A stretch of 64,000 nt of DNA from the NCBI RefSeq assembly GCF_964204865.1, contig NC_135253.1, positions 14,322,001 through 14,386,000 on the forward strand. The letters are read 5' to 3'. This document shows positions 42,601 to 57,600 of the stretch, in pieces; positions within the stretch are counted from its first letter, which is position 1, and the number at the start of each line of letters is the position of its first letter. The translations under genes were made by a program, and so were the position numbers. The notes beneath the pieces were generated by a model that saw nothing but the letters and a program-made list of their open reading frames with translations, was not told the origin of the DNA and ran no database searches. The stretch is from Styela clava (lineage: Eukaryota).

Positions 42601-45600
42601 AAAGTTTTCACCGAATTTATAAATACGGGTATATTTCTGATTAGCCGTAGTGGTATGTTATGTTACTCGTGTGCTCGACGACTATTTAACTGGTTGGAAT
42701 CGAAAAGCTTCAGAAATTGAGATAAACCATGAAGAAACAGTGAATCATATAGTATATAACAATTTCGCTGTAACTTGGTTATAAAATATTAGTCTGTAAA
42801 ACACATGGGGTGCGACGGCATATTTAACACATTCAAACAAAAGAAGCTTAAATTTTCGTCAGTCTGTGAGAAAAAACCTGGCCACCACGACTATTTGATT
42901 TGGGAAAGATAAACACTCGTGTTAGTTTGTTTACTTTTGATTGCAAACGATGTCCGAAGACAATGACCCAATTCACAGCATGTCTGTAAATTCACGATAG
43001 TTTGTGGGAATCGTCAAAGGTGATTCAATGCGTTTTACTACTAACTGGAAGTCACAAAAATAAGCAGAGTGAGAAATATTTGTTATGTGTAGAACATAGC
43101 ATGTCTTATTACAATATTTTACGATTTTACAATGTCGTATGTTTATCGGAAAATAAAATTACTAAAAGGACAAAGCATGTGGCTGTTTTGCCAGAAAAAT
43201 AGTAGCAAGGAACAGCTTCTTAGATGGTGTTGTCGCGTAATCTTCAAGAGTATGTTCTTATCAAGTGGATATGTTGTTATACTTGGAATAATAGCGTAGC
43301 TCAAGTGGCCTTAAGATCAAATTAAAATTGCTCTTTTGATAAAAAATAGATGAGAAGGTTAACCGTTATCGGTGAATAATAGTACAAAAGGCATATATAT
43401 ATAGGCAGTATATTAGGTAAATAGGAATACGATAACACCTTAATGTCGTCATCAACGCACACGTGTATGGAGGTAAATTACATGACTATGTATACGATAC
43501 TGAAATCTAATAAGTATAATTAACATGAATGAAATTAGACATTACACAACGACGTCCTTTGTATTGCACACTGATAGTAGGCCGGTTGGCGCCAATGTAT
43601 CTTTGTATTTGCCAAACCATGGTGCTGGACAAAGTATATTCTATATTTGTGCACAGGCTACCGTATATAAAGAAGACTGTTGAAAACTAATGAAAATTTC
43701 AAATATAAGACAGCAGACTATGTATTCGCAGAGGTCATGACCGACTAGTTCAATTTGTGATGGCAAAGGTTGAACGGAATCACGTTACCAAAAATTGAGA
43801 CCCATGAGACACTGTAGCTTGAATTCTGCAATACAAGTCATAGAAGTATTCAGAATAAGCCCCTGCCCTGCAGCTTATCAGGTTATTTATACTCGAATAG
43901 GGTTAAAATGTCAGCACTGTTTACGGTGGTCGTTAGGTAAGCTCATATGAGAACAAGAAAAGACAGGGTAAAAACCGACACAAAAGTAGGCAATATCGTG
44001 CGATAACGTTAGTCTGTAACTAAAAAAGAAAAAGAACGCAAGAAAGCAATCGCCATAGCTACACGCCCGAGGTTTCATCGGAAATTCAAATAATAGAGAT
44101 ACGAGCAGAGGCAAGCAACGTACGAAGAAGAGAAGATATCAACAATTACCGCAGGCAAAGTGGTTCACCTTCGCCGATTCCGACGTAATTAGGCGCGGAT
44201 TGAGCCTTGCCGTGCGTGCAGTGAAAATTTTAGATGAAAGTAGATGAATGTAAACTGTTGCATTCATTCAGAATTCCTGTCAGAAATAGTTAGTTTTTTT
44301 TTTCTGCAACTAAAATATTTTAATAAATATAAAATTGTTTTCGTTGATTTGATTTCGGTCATATTTGAAACGATGGCGATGCAATAAAATTCATGCTCTA
44401 CTTTGAAGTAGACTAGCATAAGATGATCGCAAGTTATATTCAATGAAATCAGTTTCAGTTTTTATTGATCTCAAAGGTGTAAAGGTGTTATTATTCCGTA
44501 CATTATTGCAACCTTTCTTATTATTCTCAGGTGTAAATAATAACAGTTCCAACTTAGTGCAAAATGGTGTAAATAACGAGTCAACCCTACAACTAGAAGT
44601 TGGAAATTTCAACTCGAGTGTACTTCCTAAGTTGGTATTCCGGTGACTGAGCAGTAAATGTTGATTGGTCGAGCAGAATCCCATTATATTGATCGGATTT
44701 CCGTTAAAGAACTGATAAAACCGGAATTTTAATTATCAGTAATATATTTGGGATATAAACACCATGGACGAATTGGATTACTATCTTCGAGTTGTCATTG
44801 GAAAAGATGCTGGACTTATATTTCTATGTGTGTTTGGAGCAGTTTTAAACAGCGTCATGCTGTATATGCTTTTGTCGAAAAAACAGGTACGTATTTGCGG
44901 CGTACTTCGAACGCATCCCCGGTGTTCATTTTTTCTGATTGGTAAAATATCGAAAAATATGTTTAAATTTTGTGAAAATGATTTGAAATCAATTTTGTAG
45001 CAGTTCAATTTATTGGCAGTTACAGAGTTTAACATGGCGAAATTACCGCCAAACGATACTGATAAGCATGTTGATAAGCATCCGACCAGACGTATCGAGC
45101 TGTAAGGTGAAAATCAGTTCAACGTTTTAAGACTAACAATTTATCACAGTTTGGTTTGATCATCACCAGACTAATATTAACATGAGGCGGGAATTTCGAT
45201 AAGCAGAAACTAACTAACTTTGGATCAGCTAAAATGTATGAAAGAAATACAGATATGAAGTTTGGAGCAAAAATAAGGATAGATTGGGATAATTCAGAAA
45301 ACAAACGTTAATCCGCGAACCGCAAAACGATACGTTAATCCGAAAAACATGCTACGCATCATCGTAAGTCGTCATCAAATGTGGATTTTTGCAATACCTT
45401 CGAAGGAAGCTATAAGTAAGAAAAACAATAACAGTTCGAACATAAAATACATTTACGACTCGGTGACTATATAAATAGGCCACACACGAATAATACAAGA
45501 ATTAATATAAATTGTTGCTGTAAGCTGTATACTTGCTCAAATGTGTTATCAAAACGACAAAAGACAAGTAGAATAATTTTTTGACAACCAAACTAAAGTT

Positions 45601-48600
45601 CGTCATTAAAATTGAATAACAAGATGATATGGGCCAGTTGCCTAAAGTTATATATACATGAATTATAACGATCCCAAGAATCAAAATTTAAAACAATTTT
45701 TCAACATCAGAACTTTAAAAATTCCTAGTTACCAAATTCGTGGCATCTGAAAGTGATAATGAGGTACAATTTGGTCAAATTAAGATAATTCGTTAAAAGA
45801 GAAATACCCGCAATTCTGCTAAATATTTAAACATTTTTGAGATTACCACTGGCAAGCTAGCAGTAATGACCTCGGGCATCATTTTGGGAATTATAATAAT
45901 AATAATATCAAGATTATATACAGAATGAAAGTAGGTTCAAAACTACGGATGGCATGAATTAAGACAGCGTTATTGTGATTGTTTTAATTTAACTGGAATT
46001 AGAAGCAAATGAAGCAAAATCTATGTCCTGCCAATCTTTTGATGTCACTCCTATATGTCAAGTAAATGTCAAGTTTCAAATCCACGAATACCATAAATAG
46101 TCGCGGTATCGGGAGATTATTTTATCAATATATATCAATATTTTGATTTTTAATCAACGAAAAATTTCTATTTCGATTTGGTTTGGACATAATTAGACGA
46201 GATTATTTTACGTATAGCATAACAGCTTCAACAGCACATCATTTACCTGCCAGAAGGCATGAACGGTACGGCCCCATGATCTTTCGAACGTCATGCTCGG
46301 AGTTGTTTAACGGACAAGATAATCTTATTAACGCAAATTAGGGTATGGTGCGTAAAATACCTCTCATACCCTATGTACATTTTATTACGAATGAAAACAT
46401 ATAAATTAAACAGCAAACTAGACATAAAATTTGACACTAAAACCATCTTAAAAAGTATGGATTGTATACGGAGAGCTTTGGTCACTTTATCAAGATAGTG
46501 CGAATCCGACAATTGTGGAAATATACACATGAGGTCCGAGTAAAAAGTTTGGGCACATGTTGAAACAACTACCACTGGTGCATGACATTTAAGGTGGGAC
46601 GATGAAAACAGGGGAGTACATTGTACTGTACATTATATATCTGCTCTCCAGCTGAGAAGTGATTAGCAACCAGTCAAAATATGTGTTCTGTTGCTATCTA
46701 GATCAAACAATTTGCCTACTTTCAAAATCGTTCGTCAATTCGGTAACTGACGTAATGCATTTTTGGGCAGCTTCAAAATTAATTATCCTGTTAATTTAAT
46801 TTATCTCGGAGGAAAAATTTATGCTATTACTCTCAATGACAATAAACAATCGAAATATGCATATTTCCGTATGAATTTTGAAAAGAGATTTAAAGTGGCA
46901 AAAATATTTCCAGAAAAATTCCACATTTATAGACTCATTGTAATTGCTGGCTTATAAACCGATTAGAAAAACTGTCATACAAAGAAAAATAATTTTACGT
47001 TGCTGTTTATCTATTATCTTTAATCAATAATGTCGTCAAAATCTAAAGGGTTTATACAAAATAATTGCTAAGATTATCAATCAAATTTAAGTAAGAATGA
47101 CATTATAACGCCCACACAAAACCTTTTTGATACCCAACAACTGATCAATGAAATTCCACGCATTAGTACAAGAAAATGTTTTCCCATGATTTCAATTTTA
47201 TGATAAAATATAATCTGAAGGCGTCATGGGCGGGCTTTACGTAGACGGGCTGTCTGAAAGTGCCTCCATACAAAGTCAAAATGCGCGACCAAATTCAACT
47301 ATAGGGACACAAAAGAATATCAGCTGGAAGTTCATTATCCCGTAACACAATAGAATTCATTAAATGTTATGAAATCACAAGGTCGCGGGATTATTTCTTA
47401 AGACTTTGTCGGTCCGTATCAGATCAAACACAAACTGCCATTGTGTTGACAAAGGTTGAAAATGTCACACGAAATATTATTTTGCATCTGACGCCAAAAG
47501 ACAAAAATGTAAATATAAATATTATCCGAGATTTGATATTAAATTTTGATGAAAGATGGTGGTGTTATAACACGAAAAGAGAACAGAAAAAAGTTGTTCG
47601 AGAACTGCGATCTTGCTATATTTCTGTAGTCAATTTGTATAGTTTGGTCCACAAGTTTTAATCAACAATAAAATTGAGAAATATATTATAGTTTAACTAG
47701 AATTAACATAACCAGCATAATAAGACTCTGGATACTGAATGCAAATTGCGTCACCACAACAACTACCTCATATTACACAACACTATTTATTAAGTAGATT
47801 AACCGATTAGGTATTTTTCAAATATTGTTATTGTTTAAAAGTTTTTGTTATCTTGACGTCATTATGATGTCATAACCCGCTGTTGTTTGTCTCGAATTAG
47901 TTTCCTAACCATTCTCCATTCTCGAAGATCCGCTTGCCTGAAGCGTTTTTTATGTTTATTGATTTTCTGCGAACAGCAGCAAATTTCAAAAAATATATTC
48001 GGTCGTTTTTATAAGCAACATAGAGTGAATGACATCCCAAACATTTTGAGAATGGAATCACAAGTTTAAATATATTCTATACACTAAATTTACTGTGAGC
48101 AATATTTTGTTCATAATGTACCATGTCGTTGGAGACAGGTGATAAAATATTCGAAAGGAAATTAGCAAATATCATATTAATGTCTTGGAAAAAGTCGTTA
48201 GAAATGAATATACTACTAATTCAGAAATAAAAATTCTTGGTTTACATAGAGTATCAGGCTTCTCCATAATATATCAATCACATATTCGAAACCCATACAC
48301 TATGCGACCCTTAAATTCCATCCAATGATAAAAGGATGAGTTTTAATCTTGTTATAATTGATCACCATCGGAATGCACAACAGGAAAGTAATAATACTGC
48401 TTCCACTCCATTTGGGTAATTCGTTTTAGTTCGATCGCAATATTGAGATGATTTCTAATATAATGTGTCCATTAAGTCTGATGTTTGTCAAGAAGAACAA
48501 TCTAATAAAGAAAAGCTGAAAACATGCGACGGTCTGCGTTTCGTGGAATCGCAATTTCATAGGAAAATGAATTGATGACGTATTACACAACACTGGTGTT

Positions 48601-51600
48601 TCCATGTTTCGGCATAAAAACAAACTACTTTTAGGAAACCGGATGACAGAAAACATCCAAGAAAAACGATCAATTGTAATAAATCAGTATTGGTATTGAA
48701 TATAACAGAAGAATTGGATTTTATCATTATACCCAACAGGTATATATATTCAGTACATCAACTCATACTAATTCCCAACTTTAATTGCAGATACGATCGT
48801 CGGTTCACACGGTATATATGGTACAAATTGCATTGACGGATCTCTTGGTGTGCGCAGTATGGTTGGTCCTAACAAGCGTCATCATACACAACCTACTACT
48901 AGAGACACGCGATTCTCCATCTTATGGTAAGTAATATCAATCTCAACAACACTGATATGTTTATTTGCGTTGCGTTTACGTTTGGCCTTTTGGTACCAAG
49001 AAGTGTTTACGTCAGGAATACAATGCGATTGTTTGATAACCACACCAAAACATTTATATAGCAATACTGTGTGATATTTTCCATCAAAAGATTCAATAGG
49101 GGCACACCCATGAACGCACAAAAATAAGATAACGATTCTGAAGCTTTGTGTGATAAGAATTTGCTAGAGTCTTACAGAGCAGATGGCGCATTTATTTCTG
49201 GCGTGGACAAATCAACAAACGTGATGTAACCATCGATATCAAATGTCAGCTAGTAATATAATAAATATTAGCAATACATGATAAACTATTGAGCAACGGG
49301 GCCTTTAGCAATTGTTACTCACACATTGGGCAAAAAAGAATCGTGGGAAACTCAAGGCAAAACATAACCAAAATGCGCAACTGCTTTATTTAGAGAAAGT
49401 TTTGCATACAAGAATGATATATCATACAAATAAAACAATGAAATTGGGGAAAGCTAACGAGGTGTATCTATGCGTAACGGCATTTGAAATACCGATATAG
49501 TGCACGTATTCGTAAGGGGCATATAGTGATCATTATTTTTAATTTTCGAGTAAATGAAGAAATGAGATTTGCAATGGATCAACGCAGTGAATTTTTTTTA
49601 TTTTTGAAATAACGATCGCTTACCCTTACTCTATTTGCAATTGGGGATGGGTTACAACCCCATAAGTTTCCATCCTGCTATCATATGATATCGGAGATTA
49701 CGATTCCGCGATAAAAGTTAAAAATCGGTTTTAATATTTACCGAGACAGAGGCCATTTTGGCATTGGTCAATAGTTTGTGCAAACAGTACCCGTGCGTGC
49801 AGAATACGTTGGTCGAAGATAGCTTTACTTTCTCTTCCTCACGCTATCAAAGCAGGCTTTGTCACGCAGGTAGAAAGCATGTCAAAACTTTAGCGAAACC
49901 AGGTTTCAAAATAAAATATCGAATCACGGGTGAACGAGAAGGTGAGCTACATCACGTGCATTCGACGATCAGATAAAAGGGGGTGGAGTTTGTTGCGAAC
50001 TTGGTTTAAACACCATAAAATCGAATAATTATTTTACAATTAATCACATACACCAATCATTCAGGAATAAAATAGGTAAAAATGATTGTACTCCCATTAA
50101 TTTCTCTTTCAACTTAATACTACAAAACAAGCCGTAAGTTATTGGGACGACCAAGAACGTGTTGGGGTACATTCCAATCGTGGTATATGGGTCATGTGTA
50201 CATCAACCTTTTTGTAATATAATGCCAAATCCACTCGTGGGAACACACTTCGAAAAAACCAGAAAAAGGTGATAGGAACGAACCAAATACATCGTCCAAG
50301 GTGGCAAATTTCTCATTACAAAATAGTTCACTTTGACGTAAAAAAGCTTTACATTGTGCAATTCACAACCTCTGTGTTCATCGAAATATCAAACCTTCGT
50401 GAGCCAAATCAAATTTGTAGAATATCACATTGGTTTGAATTTTGTACACCATGGTAAAGCCAGCCTGGAAATCTCAAGAACTAAGTTTGAGGTGTTCTTT
50501 TACAAAACTAAGGCCCCAGAAGTCGAGTTAATCTCTTGCGCGCGGCTAAAAAGAGATTCTTGATGTGATTTGTTTACATACGCACAAAGAGCTTTTATCT
50601 ACGCCTAACCCGTCACGCGATTGTCGATGAATTGGGAAGATGAGATAGGTTTACGATTACGTGGCTAAAATGGACAGTATCTCCCTTTCGGCGCACGCTA
50701 ACCTTGTATGTATGTCTTTTTGTGATGGTTGTGGCCAGCTGAAAAAGTTACAGACTATTAATACTATTTTTTCTATAAGAAAATCAGTTTTAAAAATCGA
50801 CTTTCCGGAAGACTATTTGACACATGCATATTGTTAAGAAAAAATAAAACGGGAAACGGAGGAGGCGGTTTTCCATAACCCTGTATTTAGCCGTAAGTCT
50901 TGATGGCAATGAAAAATTTATGAAAATATCAATCATTATTTAAAAATACCATGTGTGATATATAGGCGTATTGGATCATTCGATCGAGATTCGTATAAAA
51001 TATAAACTCTTATTATAAGGATAATAATGTTAGGTCGGGCAGAACAGCCCAAATCCGATAACGCTGGTCTACGCTTCGGCGAGCAAGACGACATAATACT
51101 TTAATTTCTAGTTTAGAGCCGAGTGTAGTGAATCACCTTGTCGACACGCGGAATGCATAAACATATATGAATCCTGAGATGGTACAAAAAAAGATAACAG
51201 TTTCATAGGTGATCGTGTTTTTGAAGAATGAAAAATCTAAAACCTAATCATAATGTTGCCCGAGGCTATTTGAAGCAAATAAATAGTTTTTTTTCATGTC
51301 AACTTCAAACTCAAATCTATTTGGCGCTTATAACTTTGCATTACGTGCGCCAAATATATTAAATGGCAACATGCTTGGGAGGATAATTAAACCATTTATC
51401 TGATAATAGTGTTAGTGACGTGGTTTGTCAACCCAGCGCGAAGAAGATGAATTGAGATTATCCCTAGAGATTCGCCGGGTGGTATAGTAATAATAATAAA
51501 AACAATATGCAACGACGACTATTTGCGGCATACCTGCATCCTGGTTTTAATCTAGTAGAATGTTAACTAACAATTTCTAGGAAAAACTTATCAACTCGCA

Positions 51601-54600
51601 ATAGGCTACGGATTATGGCCTATAACCTACCGAGTACGTACACAGTAACTAAGTACAAGATATAAAGGGGCAAGGGATCTACTGAAATGGTGATTCCACC
51701 AACAATACGAAAAATTCATTTTTCACACTCGCAATTGTAAAGAAAAAGAAAACTGTAAACCAGTAGTAGTTTGTGAAAAACTACTGAATAAAAATCAAGT
51801 ATATGAACACAATGATTTATCTAAGGCTTAGCCCCGAAAGTTTTAGTACCGTTAGACGCTGAACCACATACAGTCGTATGCAATGGTCACACAGTTAATA
51901 AATACGAAACTTCTGCTCTCTGATGGCTAACAAAAGTGAAGACAATAACTATATACATATAAAGTATATAAATTAACGTGACAATTCTACTTTTAGAACC
52001 GAACCACACGGAAGAAGTGGAAACAAATGAATCCTCTGAATACGCCACAATCACTGAGGATCCTCAGGCTGGTCCAATTCAATATCGGACATGGAGAATA
52101 ATGTATACATGGTACAATTTTCACTATTACACGAACATATTCCTGTTGGCAAGCATGAGCGTGGAGCGTTGCGCAGCTGTCTGGAAGTCAATGAGATGTC
52201 AAAGATATCAGTACAACGTAAGTCATATACTCATTAATAAAAGATTTGTGGATGTGATTTCGTCATCATCTCCACAACAACGACCCACTATTTCGACTCC
52301 GTTCCTTGACTTGTTCGTTTATGATGAAATCCTTCGAACAGATTATCACCCAGGGATGAACAATTCAAAATAGGTTGGTTCATCTCGTATTCAAAATGGT
52401 GTACACCGCAAAATGAAAAATAAATTTTTTCTGCCGTGTGTTCCTGGTGCAGTGATTCATATCTCAAAATCACCAATTTTGACTTAGCGGATTTGGGTAT
52501 CAGATTTCAAGGTAAAAAAACGGTGTCAAGTTTCCTTGTATGACCTAGTTGTTTAGCAGATATATCTCAGAATGATTTAACCTCAAATTTAGCTAACCAC
52601 TGCGGTTAGCTGCGTTTTGACATTATTGCGATTGGCATTCATTTTGGCTCCTCAAGATAATGATTTTGGCTATAGCAGATATATCTCAGAATGATTTAAC
52701 CTCAAATTTAGCTAACTACTGCGGTTAGCTGCGTTTTGACATTATTGCGATTGGCATTCATTTTGGCACCTCAAGATAATGATTTTGGCTAATTACTGAA
52801 TGAAATGGCCCCGACACATACTGGGATCTACAAAAAGCCAGTATAATATTCAAACACAGTATTCATTTTACGAAGAATAATTTCAATTATAGCACCAATA
52901 TAATTTATTCTAAACATTGACATATAGCATATGTGAAATTGTAGTTGTTATCCAAGAAAATGCAATTGTTAGAATTATGATTTATCATTTCGATTTTAAA
53001 CAGAGAAAAATCATCATCGGCGTCAGTATTTTAATGTGGATTCTGGCGTTTGTTTTTGTACTACCAAATTTGATTGATCCTGATTTGATGGTAAGCGACA
53101 GTGACTCTCCGAGTAGCGTAAGTCGAACGATCAAGTCAGAAGAAATTCCTTCAGTAAGTCCCCAGGAATGGGACGAAAAAACTTCAGATGCACTACAGCA
53201 AGTTTTTCGCGATCGCGCTTTAAAGCACAACGAATTGATCGGAGTACCGAGAAGGTTAGTTCACACATTACTTTCATTACAAGATAACTTACGTTGCTAT
53301 TCCATTCCTAGTAAATGTACTTTACTTGGGGAGATTAAAATCGAACTGTACCCTTAATATCAATTCACATTTTCTTATTTTTATTTCAGTGGAAAGATCA
53401 AAGTTGACGAAATCGGCACAGGTAATTTTATTACTGTTACTAGTTAATCATATTAAATTGAGAGAAATAAATAATCTATGAATATATTTCTCGAGTAAAA
53501 AAGGAGTTATGTAGCAGCGGATTAAGCTGTTCGCCGCTCGGCATCAACGACTAATCAGAATCAATTTTTCAGTAAATCCAATCCTTGTCCAGTGTTTGAG
53601 GTCACTAACTAAATTAAAAACTAACAAAATAATTTTTTGCCCGATACAGACCCTTTGGAGAGACCTTTTGATGCTGAAGTGAAAATATACAAGGCAGATT
53701 TGGAAACACTTTATGAATGTTACACTCTGATGCTACATGCGTACAACAATAACAGAGACTATGTACGTGATCACGGAGCAATAACGATCGAAGGTTGTCT
53801 GACAAGCATAGTGGGAATTATGCATGCCTACTCCGCGGAGTTCAGAAACGCATCAGCAAATAGGGGAGACGATGGGCCAATCCTTGATTATTCAAGTGAG
53901 TAACAAACATAGCGTACTGCATAACTAAATCAAACGAATTCAGCTATGTCAATATACTTGTGTCACTTAATGAAAAATATGACGCAAATTTCAAACCAAA
54001 TTCAACGCATTTGACACAATTATTTTGATTCATATCCATCTGTCGATTGTAATCGAGAATTAACATGGAAATTCCATTTCCAGCTGACTACTATCAACCA
54101 TTTAATGACCTTTACGAAAATTATGGCACTGATCCATACGATGAAATGGGCAACAGGGAACCACCACTAATCCCCGGAGACGACTCGATGATTAAACCAG
54201 AAATATATAACAACGAAACTGGAGTTCTGGTGAGTGATATTATATATGGCTGGTTGTCAAGACGTGACAATATCGTACCAATTATATAAAATAAAAAGTA
54301 TTATAATTGCATTTATAATATTCGGCATTGCGTCATTACATTACCGAAACCAAATTGAACAACTGGCTTGCAAAAGCAATAGTGAGAAATTAAGTAACAA
54401 GATTATTCTATCTTGTCCACAGGAAGCAGTAGAAAAGCACTTTTATCAAGAGCTATTGGCTGACGCTGTCAAGACTCTATTGGAACATCATCACAATGCA
54501 AGCCAGAATGAAGCCTGCGATCCAAATTTGTCAGACGCGGCAAGAGTATACGTTCTTGTCGTAAATTTGGTGCTGGGTTTCTTTGTTCCATTCTCCATCA

Positions 54601-57600
54601 TCGTTTTCAGTTATGTCTCTATTGCATATATGATAGGAAAGCGAGCACGCAGTCGAATGAATCCCGGCATTAGTGAAACCTCTACAACACATTTCGCGCA
54701 CAACTACCTCCAAAACCAATCGACCACAAACATCCCACTGGGACCGATTAATATGAGAGAAAAGCATTCCCGCACACGAAGAGATTCAATGGGACGTCGC
54801 ATGTCTGACTTTATGAGATACGTTGTTTTACGAAAACCACAAGGTGGTGCAGACAATCGTACGTATTGGACTGAAAGCGATCGCGGAGAGACACCTTCTG
54901 GAAGTATGCACAAATCGCCATATTCCGCTTCTTCCAGGCCGTACGAAGACTCGAGCAGTGCAAACGGTAAATCTGACGGCTTCAGTCCATCCGGGAAGTT
55001 GTCCGCAAAAACGCCAGAAGAAACCAAATCTTCGTCTTCGTCGCCTGAAGACGATCCATTATACGACGAAGAACTTCAAGAAGCTATAAGGCAATTGAGA
55101 TCAGTACAAATGCGGGGCACTGCCGGAAATGACACAAACACAAAAGTGAATCCGAGGATCAAAAAATATTCTTTTTGTTTTGATGCAACTAACGAAAATA
55201 TACCTCAGACGATCGAAGAACATCCCTATGAAATGGAAGAAAATGATGACGACGAAAGCTTTCTCACTACGAGTAACAGATCGAGCGCCAACGAAGTTTT
55301 GCAATCAGGGGCAACCAATCACGCTTCACTGTTATTAATGCAGCGTAACCCCAGGCGGGAAAGTGGAGGATCCTACGGGAGCTCAATGGATAGTATGGCT
55401 ACTGATCAAACGTCTTTGCACACCAGTCTTCATGATAAGCGTTATTCTGCAGCGACAACAATGTCTGCGCTTACGCCACCCACACCTATTGAGCCGAGCA
55501 ACCCGAATGCAAATGCATTTTTCCCACCTGATGAAAAGTTACCATACAATCGATCACAAAGTGCCGAATCAGGGTATCCATTATTGGGAGATAGAACAGA
55601 TGGACATCACTCTGGGGACCAACGATCTCCAAGACCCAACAAACCCGGCTCGCAACTCAACGACATAAAATTAAAATTATATCGAAACTCACTAAGAAAA
55701 CAAGGAGATGATACAGATATCGGAGCGCTACTTTCAAAAGAAAATGACGGTCATTCTTCACCTGATATAAGCAAAACTGACCAAGGTTAGTTGTAAAACA
55801 TCGATGATCGCCTTTTAGAGTTCATATTATTGTATAGGGCAAAAAGTGTTTGGACTCGTTGTCGAGCGGAAAGCACTTTTATCACCGGTGGGATGTTGAG
55901 GAAAATCTCAGTGCTCATTTGTTACGATTTTACAAACATTTTTTCGACAATACATAAAAATATTTGTTTTCTTTTCGCCACAGCCTCTACCTCATCAACT
56001 GTTACTAAACCTACAGCGCGTGAGCGATATTCTTATCCGAGAATGACCAGAAGTAAGTCTGCTCCAGGAGACCATATTAATTCTGTGAAACATGGAAAGA
56101 GATCAGGCGATGATCATGGACAAAGTAGCATATCACAGTATCCTAAATACCACAGGCAAAATTCGTCAACGTCGACAGTATACTTTCAGCGGGGTCGAAC
56201 TTATTCTACAACATCAAGAGGTAGTGTCGGAGGTAGGCATATTAGAATCAACATTGTTTTGCTTTTTTACAATAACAACAACTCATATTTCTAATGAAAA
56301 TGACACATTTATTCTAATGATAATGACACATTTTTCCAGGTACCAGTATTTTGCACAAAACCATGGCACGAAAAAATGCAGAACGTCATCTTCGGGTTTC
56401 TCGCACTGTACTCGCCTACGTCATCGTTTTTGCCATTTGCTGGCTGCCTCAGCGTATCACTTACCTTCTCTACGTCATAGAGGTAAGAGATTCAAGATTA
56501 AATTTGAAATAAATATCTTACAGAGCCACTATAACCAAGCGCTATGGTAAAGTAACAATTACCAGTAAGAAAACGGTACTTTTTTTTTGGAAGTTCTCTG
56601 ATTATATAATTTATTTTGCAGGCATTAATGGGAGCTACAGACGATATTTGCATCAAGCTAATATCGGGGACCAGATTGCTGAGTTTCATAAGCGTGCTTC
56701 TCAACCCTGCGGTATACATCATGACACAACGGGATATACGAGCTTATATTCGTAATAGTTATTGCGTGACTAAACTGCGTCACTGGTACACAAAGTGCAC
56801 ACGCAAACGACACGTCAGAGCGGAGTACAACGCAGCTAGAAGTCGTGATAATGAAGAAACCACCGATCGAAAACATGACATTGAACTTCAGATTAGACAT
56901 GACCAGGAAATAGAGAAAGAATTATCAAGTAATCGTCAAACAAATGGTGCTCGGCCAAATTTCCGCGTGGCGAGTCCACAACGTATGTCCAGCCCACAGC
57001 GACCTGCAATACATGCGAGGAAAAACCAAAGTGGTACAACTCATGAAACATTTGCACCGACAACTGCAATTTTGCGACGTGGTGCCACAACGATTGATGA
57101 GATGAAAGAAGAGGAAGAAGCTGCGGAAGAAAGCCTCGAAAAGGAAATGAAAAGAATCGCAGCGGAAGAGGAAAATTGCCGCAAAGATGATATAAATAAA
57201 AACTGGTTGGAATCCTCAGAGGACGATATTATATCTGCAAAAAATACTTCAGGCAGTGGGAATAAAACATCAAGTTCTAGCTCAAAATCAGAAAACTTTG
57301 AAGAATTTTGGATGCGTTGGTTGAAAAGTGGGGGAGCTGAACTTTTGTCACCAGCCAATGGAAATTTATCAAGCACTGACACCCCAAGTAGAATAGACCC
57401 TAGTCTTGCAGAACTGGATGACATTGTACAAACAAAAATACCAAATGGCACAAATAATGAAATAAGTGAAACGATGATATTGAAATAGCAAAAACAATGC
57501 AATCTACAAGTAAGAAGTGAAATTATCCCCTGACCATATTTGGGTTCAAAAAATAGGTACGTCAGCTATGCTTCAAAACCCAATCTATATTTACGAACAA

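Follow-up and report, generated by a model that had tools for sequence, protein, structure and literature searches.

The C3a receptor of Ciona intestinalis is the only invertebrate C3a receptor reported, and owing to its long second extracellular loop (ECL2) it is usually seen as a forerunner of the vertebrate C3aR. It is pertussis-toxin sensitive (Gi), and the evidence that Melillo et al. gathered for it is said to have been the blocking of chemotaxis by antibody and not direct binding to the expressed receptor. Its identifiers are CAI84650, Q14SS9 and NP_001072020, from Melillo et al. (2006, J Immunol 177:4132). In the text and Table S2 of PMC7565592 the sequence published by Melillo et al. 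is CAI84650 (P0007 in our set), a protein that databases label 'putative'. According to section 12 of PMC5465252, C3a recruits hemocytes in Ciona by binding a GPCR of PO-containing hemocytes, and the C3a receptor gene is described as LPS-induced in PMC6707023; general context is provided by passages of PMC6504862, PMC3342567 and PMC3074122. In human C3aR, Cys3.25 and the ECL2 cysteine C172 are both kept and a long stretch follows C172 (PMC7565592, Figure S2). As presented in the relevant parts of bioRxiv 2023.01.18.524551 and PMC7615941, residues K175-P330 are unresolved in cryo-EM and largely dispensable, and C3a is bound via Y174, R340(5.42), Y393(6.51) and D417(7.35), of which the TM residues form the pocket for the terminal Arg. 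Here we compare with these systems a receptor gene of Styela clava that had been singled out for its very large ECL2.

Gene structure, transcripts and orthology

The window, that is, the whole stretch of 64,000 nucleotides that was analysed, carries on its + strand (44764-57488) a class A GPCR gene of 11 coding exons and 1258 aa, in which all introns are GT-AG and the reading frame is kept (Table 1). Its translation equals the 1258-aa RefSeq protein XP_039249644.2 (P0002), listed for Styela clava as 'uncharacterized LOC120327251'. The 7tm_1 family (PF00001) scores 85.8 bits on this protein against a cut-off of 30.5, and the class A motifs N1.50, D2.50, R3.50, P5.50, CWxP and NPxxY are present. 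All ten splice junctions, including both flanks of the 32-nt exon, were found within one contig per run in three of three RNA-like runs from three studies, so that exons 5-7 of the loop are present in transcripts; none of the ten was found in one DNA-like run, RNA-like and DNA-like status being a computed guess. Among the three contigs (one per RNA-like run) no alternative splicing of the loop exons was seen. An overlooked exon in the N-terminus or in ECL1, through which Cys3.25 or N-terminal glycosylation might be regained, was rejected, as the three contigs join exons 1, 2 and 3 directly. Exon 9 ends in two candidate GT donors 12 nt apart (56221-56232), the second of which (56232) is used by the contigs and by RefSeq, and intron 3 holds a 119-nt unit in two tandem copies that are 98% alike (52554-52791).

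Table 1. Exons of the Styela clava receptor gene, with window positions and the parts of the protein they encode
Feature	Positions	Strand	Content
5' UTR	44531..44763	+	Contigs run without splicing from 44529-44546 through exon 1
Exon 1	44764..44886	+	Short N-terminus without sequons; TM1 (N1.50 = aa 29)
Exon 2	48791..48926	+	TM2 (D2.50 = aa 58); start of ECL1
Exon 3	51997..52217	+	Remaining ECL1 (39 aa; two sequons); TM3 (W at 3.25, 52092-52094; ERC); ICL2
Exon 4	53004..53254	+	TM4 (P181 at 53064); first ECL2 linker, mostly low model confidence
Exon 5	53390..53421	+	32-nt micro-exon, first ECL2 linker; both junctions in 3/3 RNA-like contigs
Exon 6 (phase 1-1)	53650..53895	+	ECL2 core 1; C278 at 53718, C304 at 53796
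Exon 7	54084..54229	+	Linker rich in Tyr and acidic residues (aa 338-357 at 54086-54145), predicted to be disordered; candidate sites for sulfation
Exon 8, 5' part	54423..54545	+	ECL2 core 2, with a strand and a helix predicted over aa 385-415; C417 at 54516
Exon 8, remainder	54546..55785	+	TM5 (P5.50 = aa 441); most of ICL3 (483 aa)
Exon 9	55984..56232	+	ICL3
Exon 10	56340..56482	+	TM6; invariant CWLPQRI (Q6.51, R6.52)
Exon 11	56622..57488	+	C7.31 (aa 980, 56649); R7.39 (aa 988); NPxxY; C-tail of ~250 aa; stop

Contig X2 begins with a loose 5' end of 13 nt that is absent from the window. This leader end together with AG-GT occurs 148 times in the genome, and a reversed control 0 times; the mRNA is likely trans-spliced to a spliced leader at 44531, with the acceptor AG at 44529-44530. 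Many copies of the leader are arrayed in tandem every ~1634 bp (G000:C8:4.23-4.57 Mb); these are likely the SL RNA genes. The 5' UTR carries an upstream ORF of two codons at 44564. It also holds an in-frame open stretch (44531-44644) with three N-glycosylation-like words, followed by several stops ahead of the ATG, which looks like either a lost longer N-terminus or a product of chance; as coding sequence this sequon-rich frame was rejected, being crossed unspliced by the three contigs and closed by stops.

Based on sequence comparison, the gene is orthologous to the C3a receptor of Ciona intestinalis (CAI84650) and occurs as a single copy. BLASTP of CAI84650 against the Styela protein gave E values of 5e-68 and 1e-37, and the two proteins are 61% identical over 232 TM columns. 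In the Styela genome, the best 5 of 10 matches to CAI84650 fall on exons of the gene, with E values of 3e-16 to 1.5e-6, and the next has an E value of 0.015, while exon 6 as a query finds one place only. Orthology was read in the direction from the Ciona protein to the Styela genome, with database-wide searches as the reverse. The original prediction had proposed either an invertebrate anaphylatoxin-type receptor or a new orphan. The first proposal was correct and had been published for the receptor of Ciona; the second was wrong, ruled out by the BLASTP and genome matches to a published receptor. The receptor type has been known since 2006, and the Styela gene itself is unannotated.

Database relatives number at least five: P0004, P0009, a Phallusia 'putative C3a receptor', Clavelina LOC143445111 and Ciona CAI84650. 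This list is incomplete because the searches were limited by length and shared words. A search of exon 6 against 1.84 billion representative sequences returned two proteins only, exon 6's own and a 67-aa fragment, and relatives were absent among 208 pattern matches of a metagenome scan. The six members compared (Styela, Ciona, Phallusia, Clavelina, P0004 and P0009) all share a signature consisting of ERC/F..AVWKSxRCQRYQ, three ECL2 cysteines, CWLPQRI, C7.31 and the lack of a cysteine at 3.25, a position that is a gap, and so without Cys, in P0009.

The cytoplasmic side is also distinctive, and the original prediction had mentioned neither the missing Cys3.25 nor the ICL3 of ~480 aa nor the C-tail of ~250 aa. 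Ten of 12 residues of ICL2 (52183-52217), C154 among them, are invariant in all six members; it is the best conserved loop, which is unusual in an otherwise fast-evolving receptor. ICL3 (aa 453-935, 54624-56380) measures 483 aa in Styela and 235-435 aa in the relatives, contains the words RRMS and RRxSGGS in 6/6, and is predicted to be disordered in the Ciona model.

The second extracellular loop

The description of the loop in the original prediction was borne out: 245 aa separate TM4, whose FVLP ends at aa 181, from TM5, where VYVLVV starts at aa 427, and they are spread over five exons (4-8). The loop contains the sequons NAS321, NET380, NAS410 and NLS420, cysteines 278, 304 and 417, and the acidic Tyr/Asp cluster at aa 338-357. 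Two HAY words, which had been taken to mark a possible fold, are both present in the Styela loop but are found in none of the five other family loops; only the Ala of the first HAY is invariant, and the repeat was rejected as a motif. What is conserved instead are Cys278, Ala285, Val293 and Cys304, the third helix, and Cys417.

The loops of the family measure 245, 229, 183, 178, 161 and 154 aa and are 12-27% identical to that of Styela overall. A profile built from the Ciona, Phallusia and Clavelina loops scores the Styela loop at 46.0 bits, and the best shuffle, with 966 of 1000 shuffles listed, reached 9.8 bits, so that conservation goes beyond chance; the same profile gives P0004 19.1 bits and P0009 only 11.4. 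Seven loop residues are invariant in 6/6, including the three cysteines, and four of the invariant positions (C278, A285, V293 and C304) lie in the exon 6 core. The two linkers behave otherwise, with identities of 4-28%, one and zero invariant residues respectively, and lengths of 19-81 aa ahead of the core and 42-67 aa inside it. The first linker measures 81 aa in Styela and 69 aa in P0004, as against 19-30 aa in the four other relatives. Since the linkers vary in this way, the record length of the Styela loop reflects linker growth and no new domain.

A helix-hairpin-helix plus strand-helix domain of ~85 residues is predicted within ECL2, accompanied by two variable, mostly disordered linkers; no such folded domain is known from the loop of human C3aR. 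The AlphaFold model of the Styela loop (7 sequences) places helices at aa 260-287, 301-315 and 390-415, with a short hairpin between the first two; pLDDT lies between 79 and 92 for aa 262-311 and between 69 and 87 for aa 382-411, and pTM is 0.45. A model of the whole Ciona protein has the same helix pattern, with pLDDT of 66-81 there and a pTM of 0.38. The models rest on 6-7 sequences, and the two are not independent because most of the alignment is common to both. In the Styela loop 124 of 245 residues have pLDDT <50, and low confidence in the first ~60 residues is partly uninformative because these were misplaced in alignment A5 against other regions of the relatives. The earlier idea that a helical-looking segment could form a fold is supported by conservation and by both models.

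Fold searches returned generic answers. Foldseek of the loop gave 0 matches at E <= 0.001, an ESM Atlas search gave no usable match and no Pfam family lies within the loop. In a VIA search the best Z was 7.6 (rmsd 4.0, 81 aligned residues), with 0 of 48161 entries at Z >= 8, and the matches are generic helical ones, which do not show a new fold. The Ciona model matches class A structures with Z of 22-24.8 and rmsd of 2.7-4.5 over 248-283 residues, values that do not rank subfamilies. By title and abstract start, in a search mainly of openly available papers, no paper was found on a folded loop domain or an absent Cys3.25 in this receptor; the same holds for the Styela gene, complement topics included. 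The three conserved loop cysteines and the predicted loop domain thus seem to be undescribed.

C278, C304, C417 and C980 are invariant in 6/6; no other extracellular cysteine is, and this points to two bonds. Throughout the family the last loop cysteine (C417) stands nine residues ahead of TM5. The Styela loop is acidic (47 D+E versus 21 K+R), as are all six, and sulfation of loop tyrosines at candidate sites is plausible; a crude acidic-context rule picks out 2, 1, 0, 3, 6 and 3 Tyr in the six loops, at positions that are not aligned.

Ligand, mechanism and rival readings

By analogy with its Ciona ortholog, the Styela receptor probably senses C3a, the fragment of complement C3, on blood cells and would drive chemotaxis. 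A C3-like gene is present in Styela (L019:6250-7550; G000:C5:11.98-11.99 Mb, - strand). It has a basic processing site and, upstream of thioester-domain exons, an anaphylatoxin-like exon that carries four Cys and scores only just above the Pfam cut-off. A second anaphylatoxin-like exon (L012:1127-1647; G000:C19:11.60 Mb) with paired Cys follows an exon that bears two basic processing sites, and none of the 40 thioester-domain matches listed is nearby. Modelling of a complex between aa 258-426 and 60 aa from the anaphylatoxin-like exon of the C3-like gene, made without an alignment, gave no answer either way (score 0.00).

We suggest the following mechanism. C278-C304 would staple the helical hairpin, and C417 would pair with C980 (7.31), tying the domain over the pocket and replacing the TM3-ECL2 bond. 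The acidic loop may capture the body of C3a, whose tail would enter a pocket of H3.35, Q6.51, R6.52 and R7.39, a set that differs from that of vertebrate C3aR. The long Ser-rich ICL3 likely offers sites for phosphorylation and desensitisation and may regulate signalling. That the tunicate C3a receptor was built in this way independently of vertebrate C3aR, with a stapled helical ECL2 cap, a C417-C7.31 bond and a two-arginine pocket, is a possibility that we put forward tentatively.

The gene and its Ciona ortholog might instead belong to a tunicate orphan family whose main ligand is other than C3a, for example an acidic peptide or carboxylate lipid at R6.52/R7.39 or a protein at the ECL2 domain. 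We consider this unlikely. It would suit a pocket that lacks D7.35 and R5.42 and has two invariant arginines, the weak and query-dependent affinity to vertebrate C3aR in profile ranks, and the ESM Atlas neighbours, which were GPR75, GPR61 and others, with C3aR absent among the matches listed. However, the Ciona protein is treated as a functional C3a receptor in the passages of PMC8359198, PMC5465252 and PMC6707023 that deal with it, the TM3-TM4 half matches C3aR best, and the loop is acidic throughout the family.

It also seems doubtful that the gene is a true ortholog of vertebrate C3aR/C5aR with an inherited long loop, the domain having been lost in vertebrates or gained inside the loop. Neither Cys3.25 nor three pocket residues agree between the two groups, and the tunicate loop core is unaligned to C3aR in the alignments listed. 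The published tree, as it appears in PMC7565592, had FPR-type outgroups only and pools receptors in which Cys3.25 is present with Ciona R1, in which it is missing. A genome-wide study of Ciona (PMC2396169), in which C3a is not mentioned, describes chemokine-cluster-like receptors as poorly supported in trees. These points have to be set against the alignment of ERC..VWK..RCQ with human DRC..VFK..WCQ and the chance that C278 is a displaced equivalent of human C172.

The original prediction had further suggested a tethered ligand, and a loop acting as built-in agonist or lid in a self- or protease-activated receptor would accord with the very short N-terminus, the loss of the canonical disulfide and a folded loop predicted to be tied near TM7. 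This is very improbable and found no support, given that the linkers (4-28% identity; one and zero invariant residues) have no conserved cleavage-like or ligand-like word and that an external ligand is reported for the Ciona ortholog in PMC5465252, in the part on hemocyte recruitment. Lastly, a gene-model artefact or unconserved disordered spacer, to which the 124 residues of pLDDT <50 might point, is refuted for the core by junctions spliced in three studies, 46.0 versus 9.8 bits and three invariant Cys, and holds for the two linkers only, so that as an account of the loop it can practically be dismissed.

Comparison with described receptors

The Styela receptor and vertebrate C3aR both belong to the class A GPCRs, and both have an ECL2 that is very long and acidic (245 aa and 47 D+E in Styela, where a vertebrate C3aR loop is one of >150 aa and acidic) and a similar GF..P word in TM5. 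Human C3aR has Cys3.25, whereas the tunicate family has W, Y or H there and a cysteine in none of six members; human C172 adjoins TM4, whereas the first tunicate loop Cys comes 31-97 residues after it. The C3aR pocket residues R5.42, Y6.51 and D7.35 are absent in 6/6 tunicate members, being replaced by N/H, Q and I/V/T/F/M, and R6.52 and R7.39 are invariant in them. PMC7565592, in its account of Ciona R1, gives no Tyr equivalent to human Y174. ICL3 is far longer in the Styela receptor than in human C3aR. The likeness to the vertebrate loop that had been drawn earlier is superficial: the human long loop follows the ECL2 Cys, is unresolved in cryo-EM and is largely dispensable, so that the two long loops probably arose separately, an origin on which we lean to the side of independence. 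On the tentative reading of an independently built receptor, the shared 'giant ECL2', for which these receptors have been called homologous, would be convergence, and the tunicate loop would be a class A ectodomain of a new kind. If the loop is folded and both the pocket and the disulfides are different, the origin of chordate anaphylatoxin signalling needs re-examination. The domain boundaries (aa 260-315 and 385-417) allow direct binding and structure tests.

Profile searches against solved receptors rank differently by query. The single Styela protein puts nociceptin and bombesin receptors first, and other searches gave a tie of C3aR and CCR6, C3aR ahead by 1.5-3.6 bits, or CCR6 first. For the TM3-TM4 half, the only half favouring C3aR, C3aR is best among the solved receptors at 27.6-29.2 bits. 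One non-significant alignment sets C417 on the ECL2 Cys of neurotensin receptor 1. This fits an insertion ahead of the canonical ECL2 Cys but is no more than a lead, and the counterpart of that Cys may be C278. MAS and MRGPR receptors were the top non-significant matches of the TM3 exon (E 0.09-0.6), likewise a weak lead. Receptors of this kind have short loops and are not known to form the TM3-ECL2 disulfide.

Several other ascidian class A GPCRs with a long ECL2 bear the same name, namely Botryllus 'C3a/C5aR' R1, Ciona R3/R4 and Halocynthia R. Judged by eye from Figure S2 of PMC7565592, they keep Cys3.25 and have neither the conserved ICL2 word nor CWLPQRI nor a long ICL3; because Cys3.25 is kept and the family signatures are absent, they are seemingly not orthologs of the Ciona C3a receptor. 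In the tree given in PMC7565592, Ciona R1 groups with Botryllus R2/R3. By these sequence features, two families appear to be mixed in the published set of 'ascidian C3aR' sequences.

The Ciona C3a receptor is the closest described system. It has the same ERC, ICL2, CWLPQRI, three ECL2 cysteines and C7.31, the same lack of Cys3.25, a long ICL3 with shared Arg/Ser words and the same predicted loop domain. The Styela receptor differs from it in length, with an ECL2 of 245 versus 161 aa, an ECL1 of 39 versus 18, an ICL3 of 483 versus 287 and a C-tail of 250 versus 151 aa.
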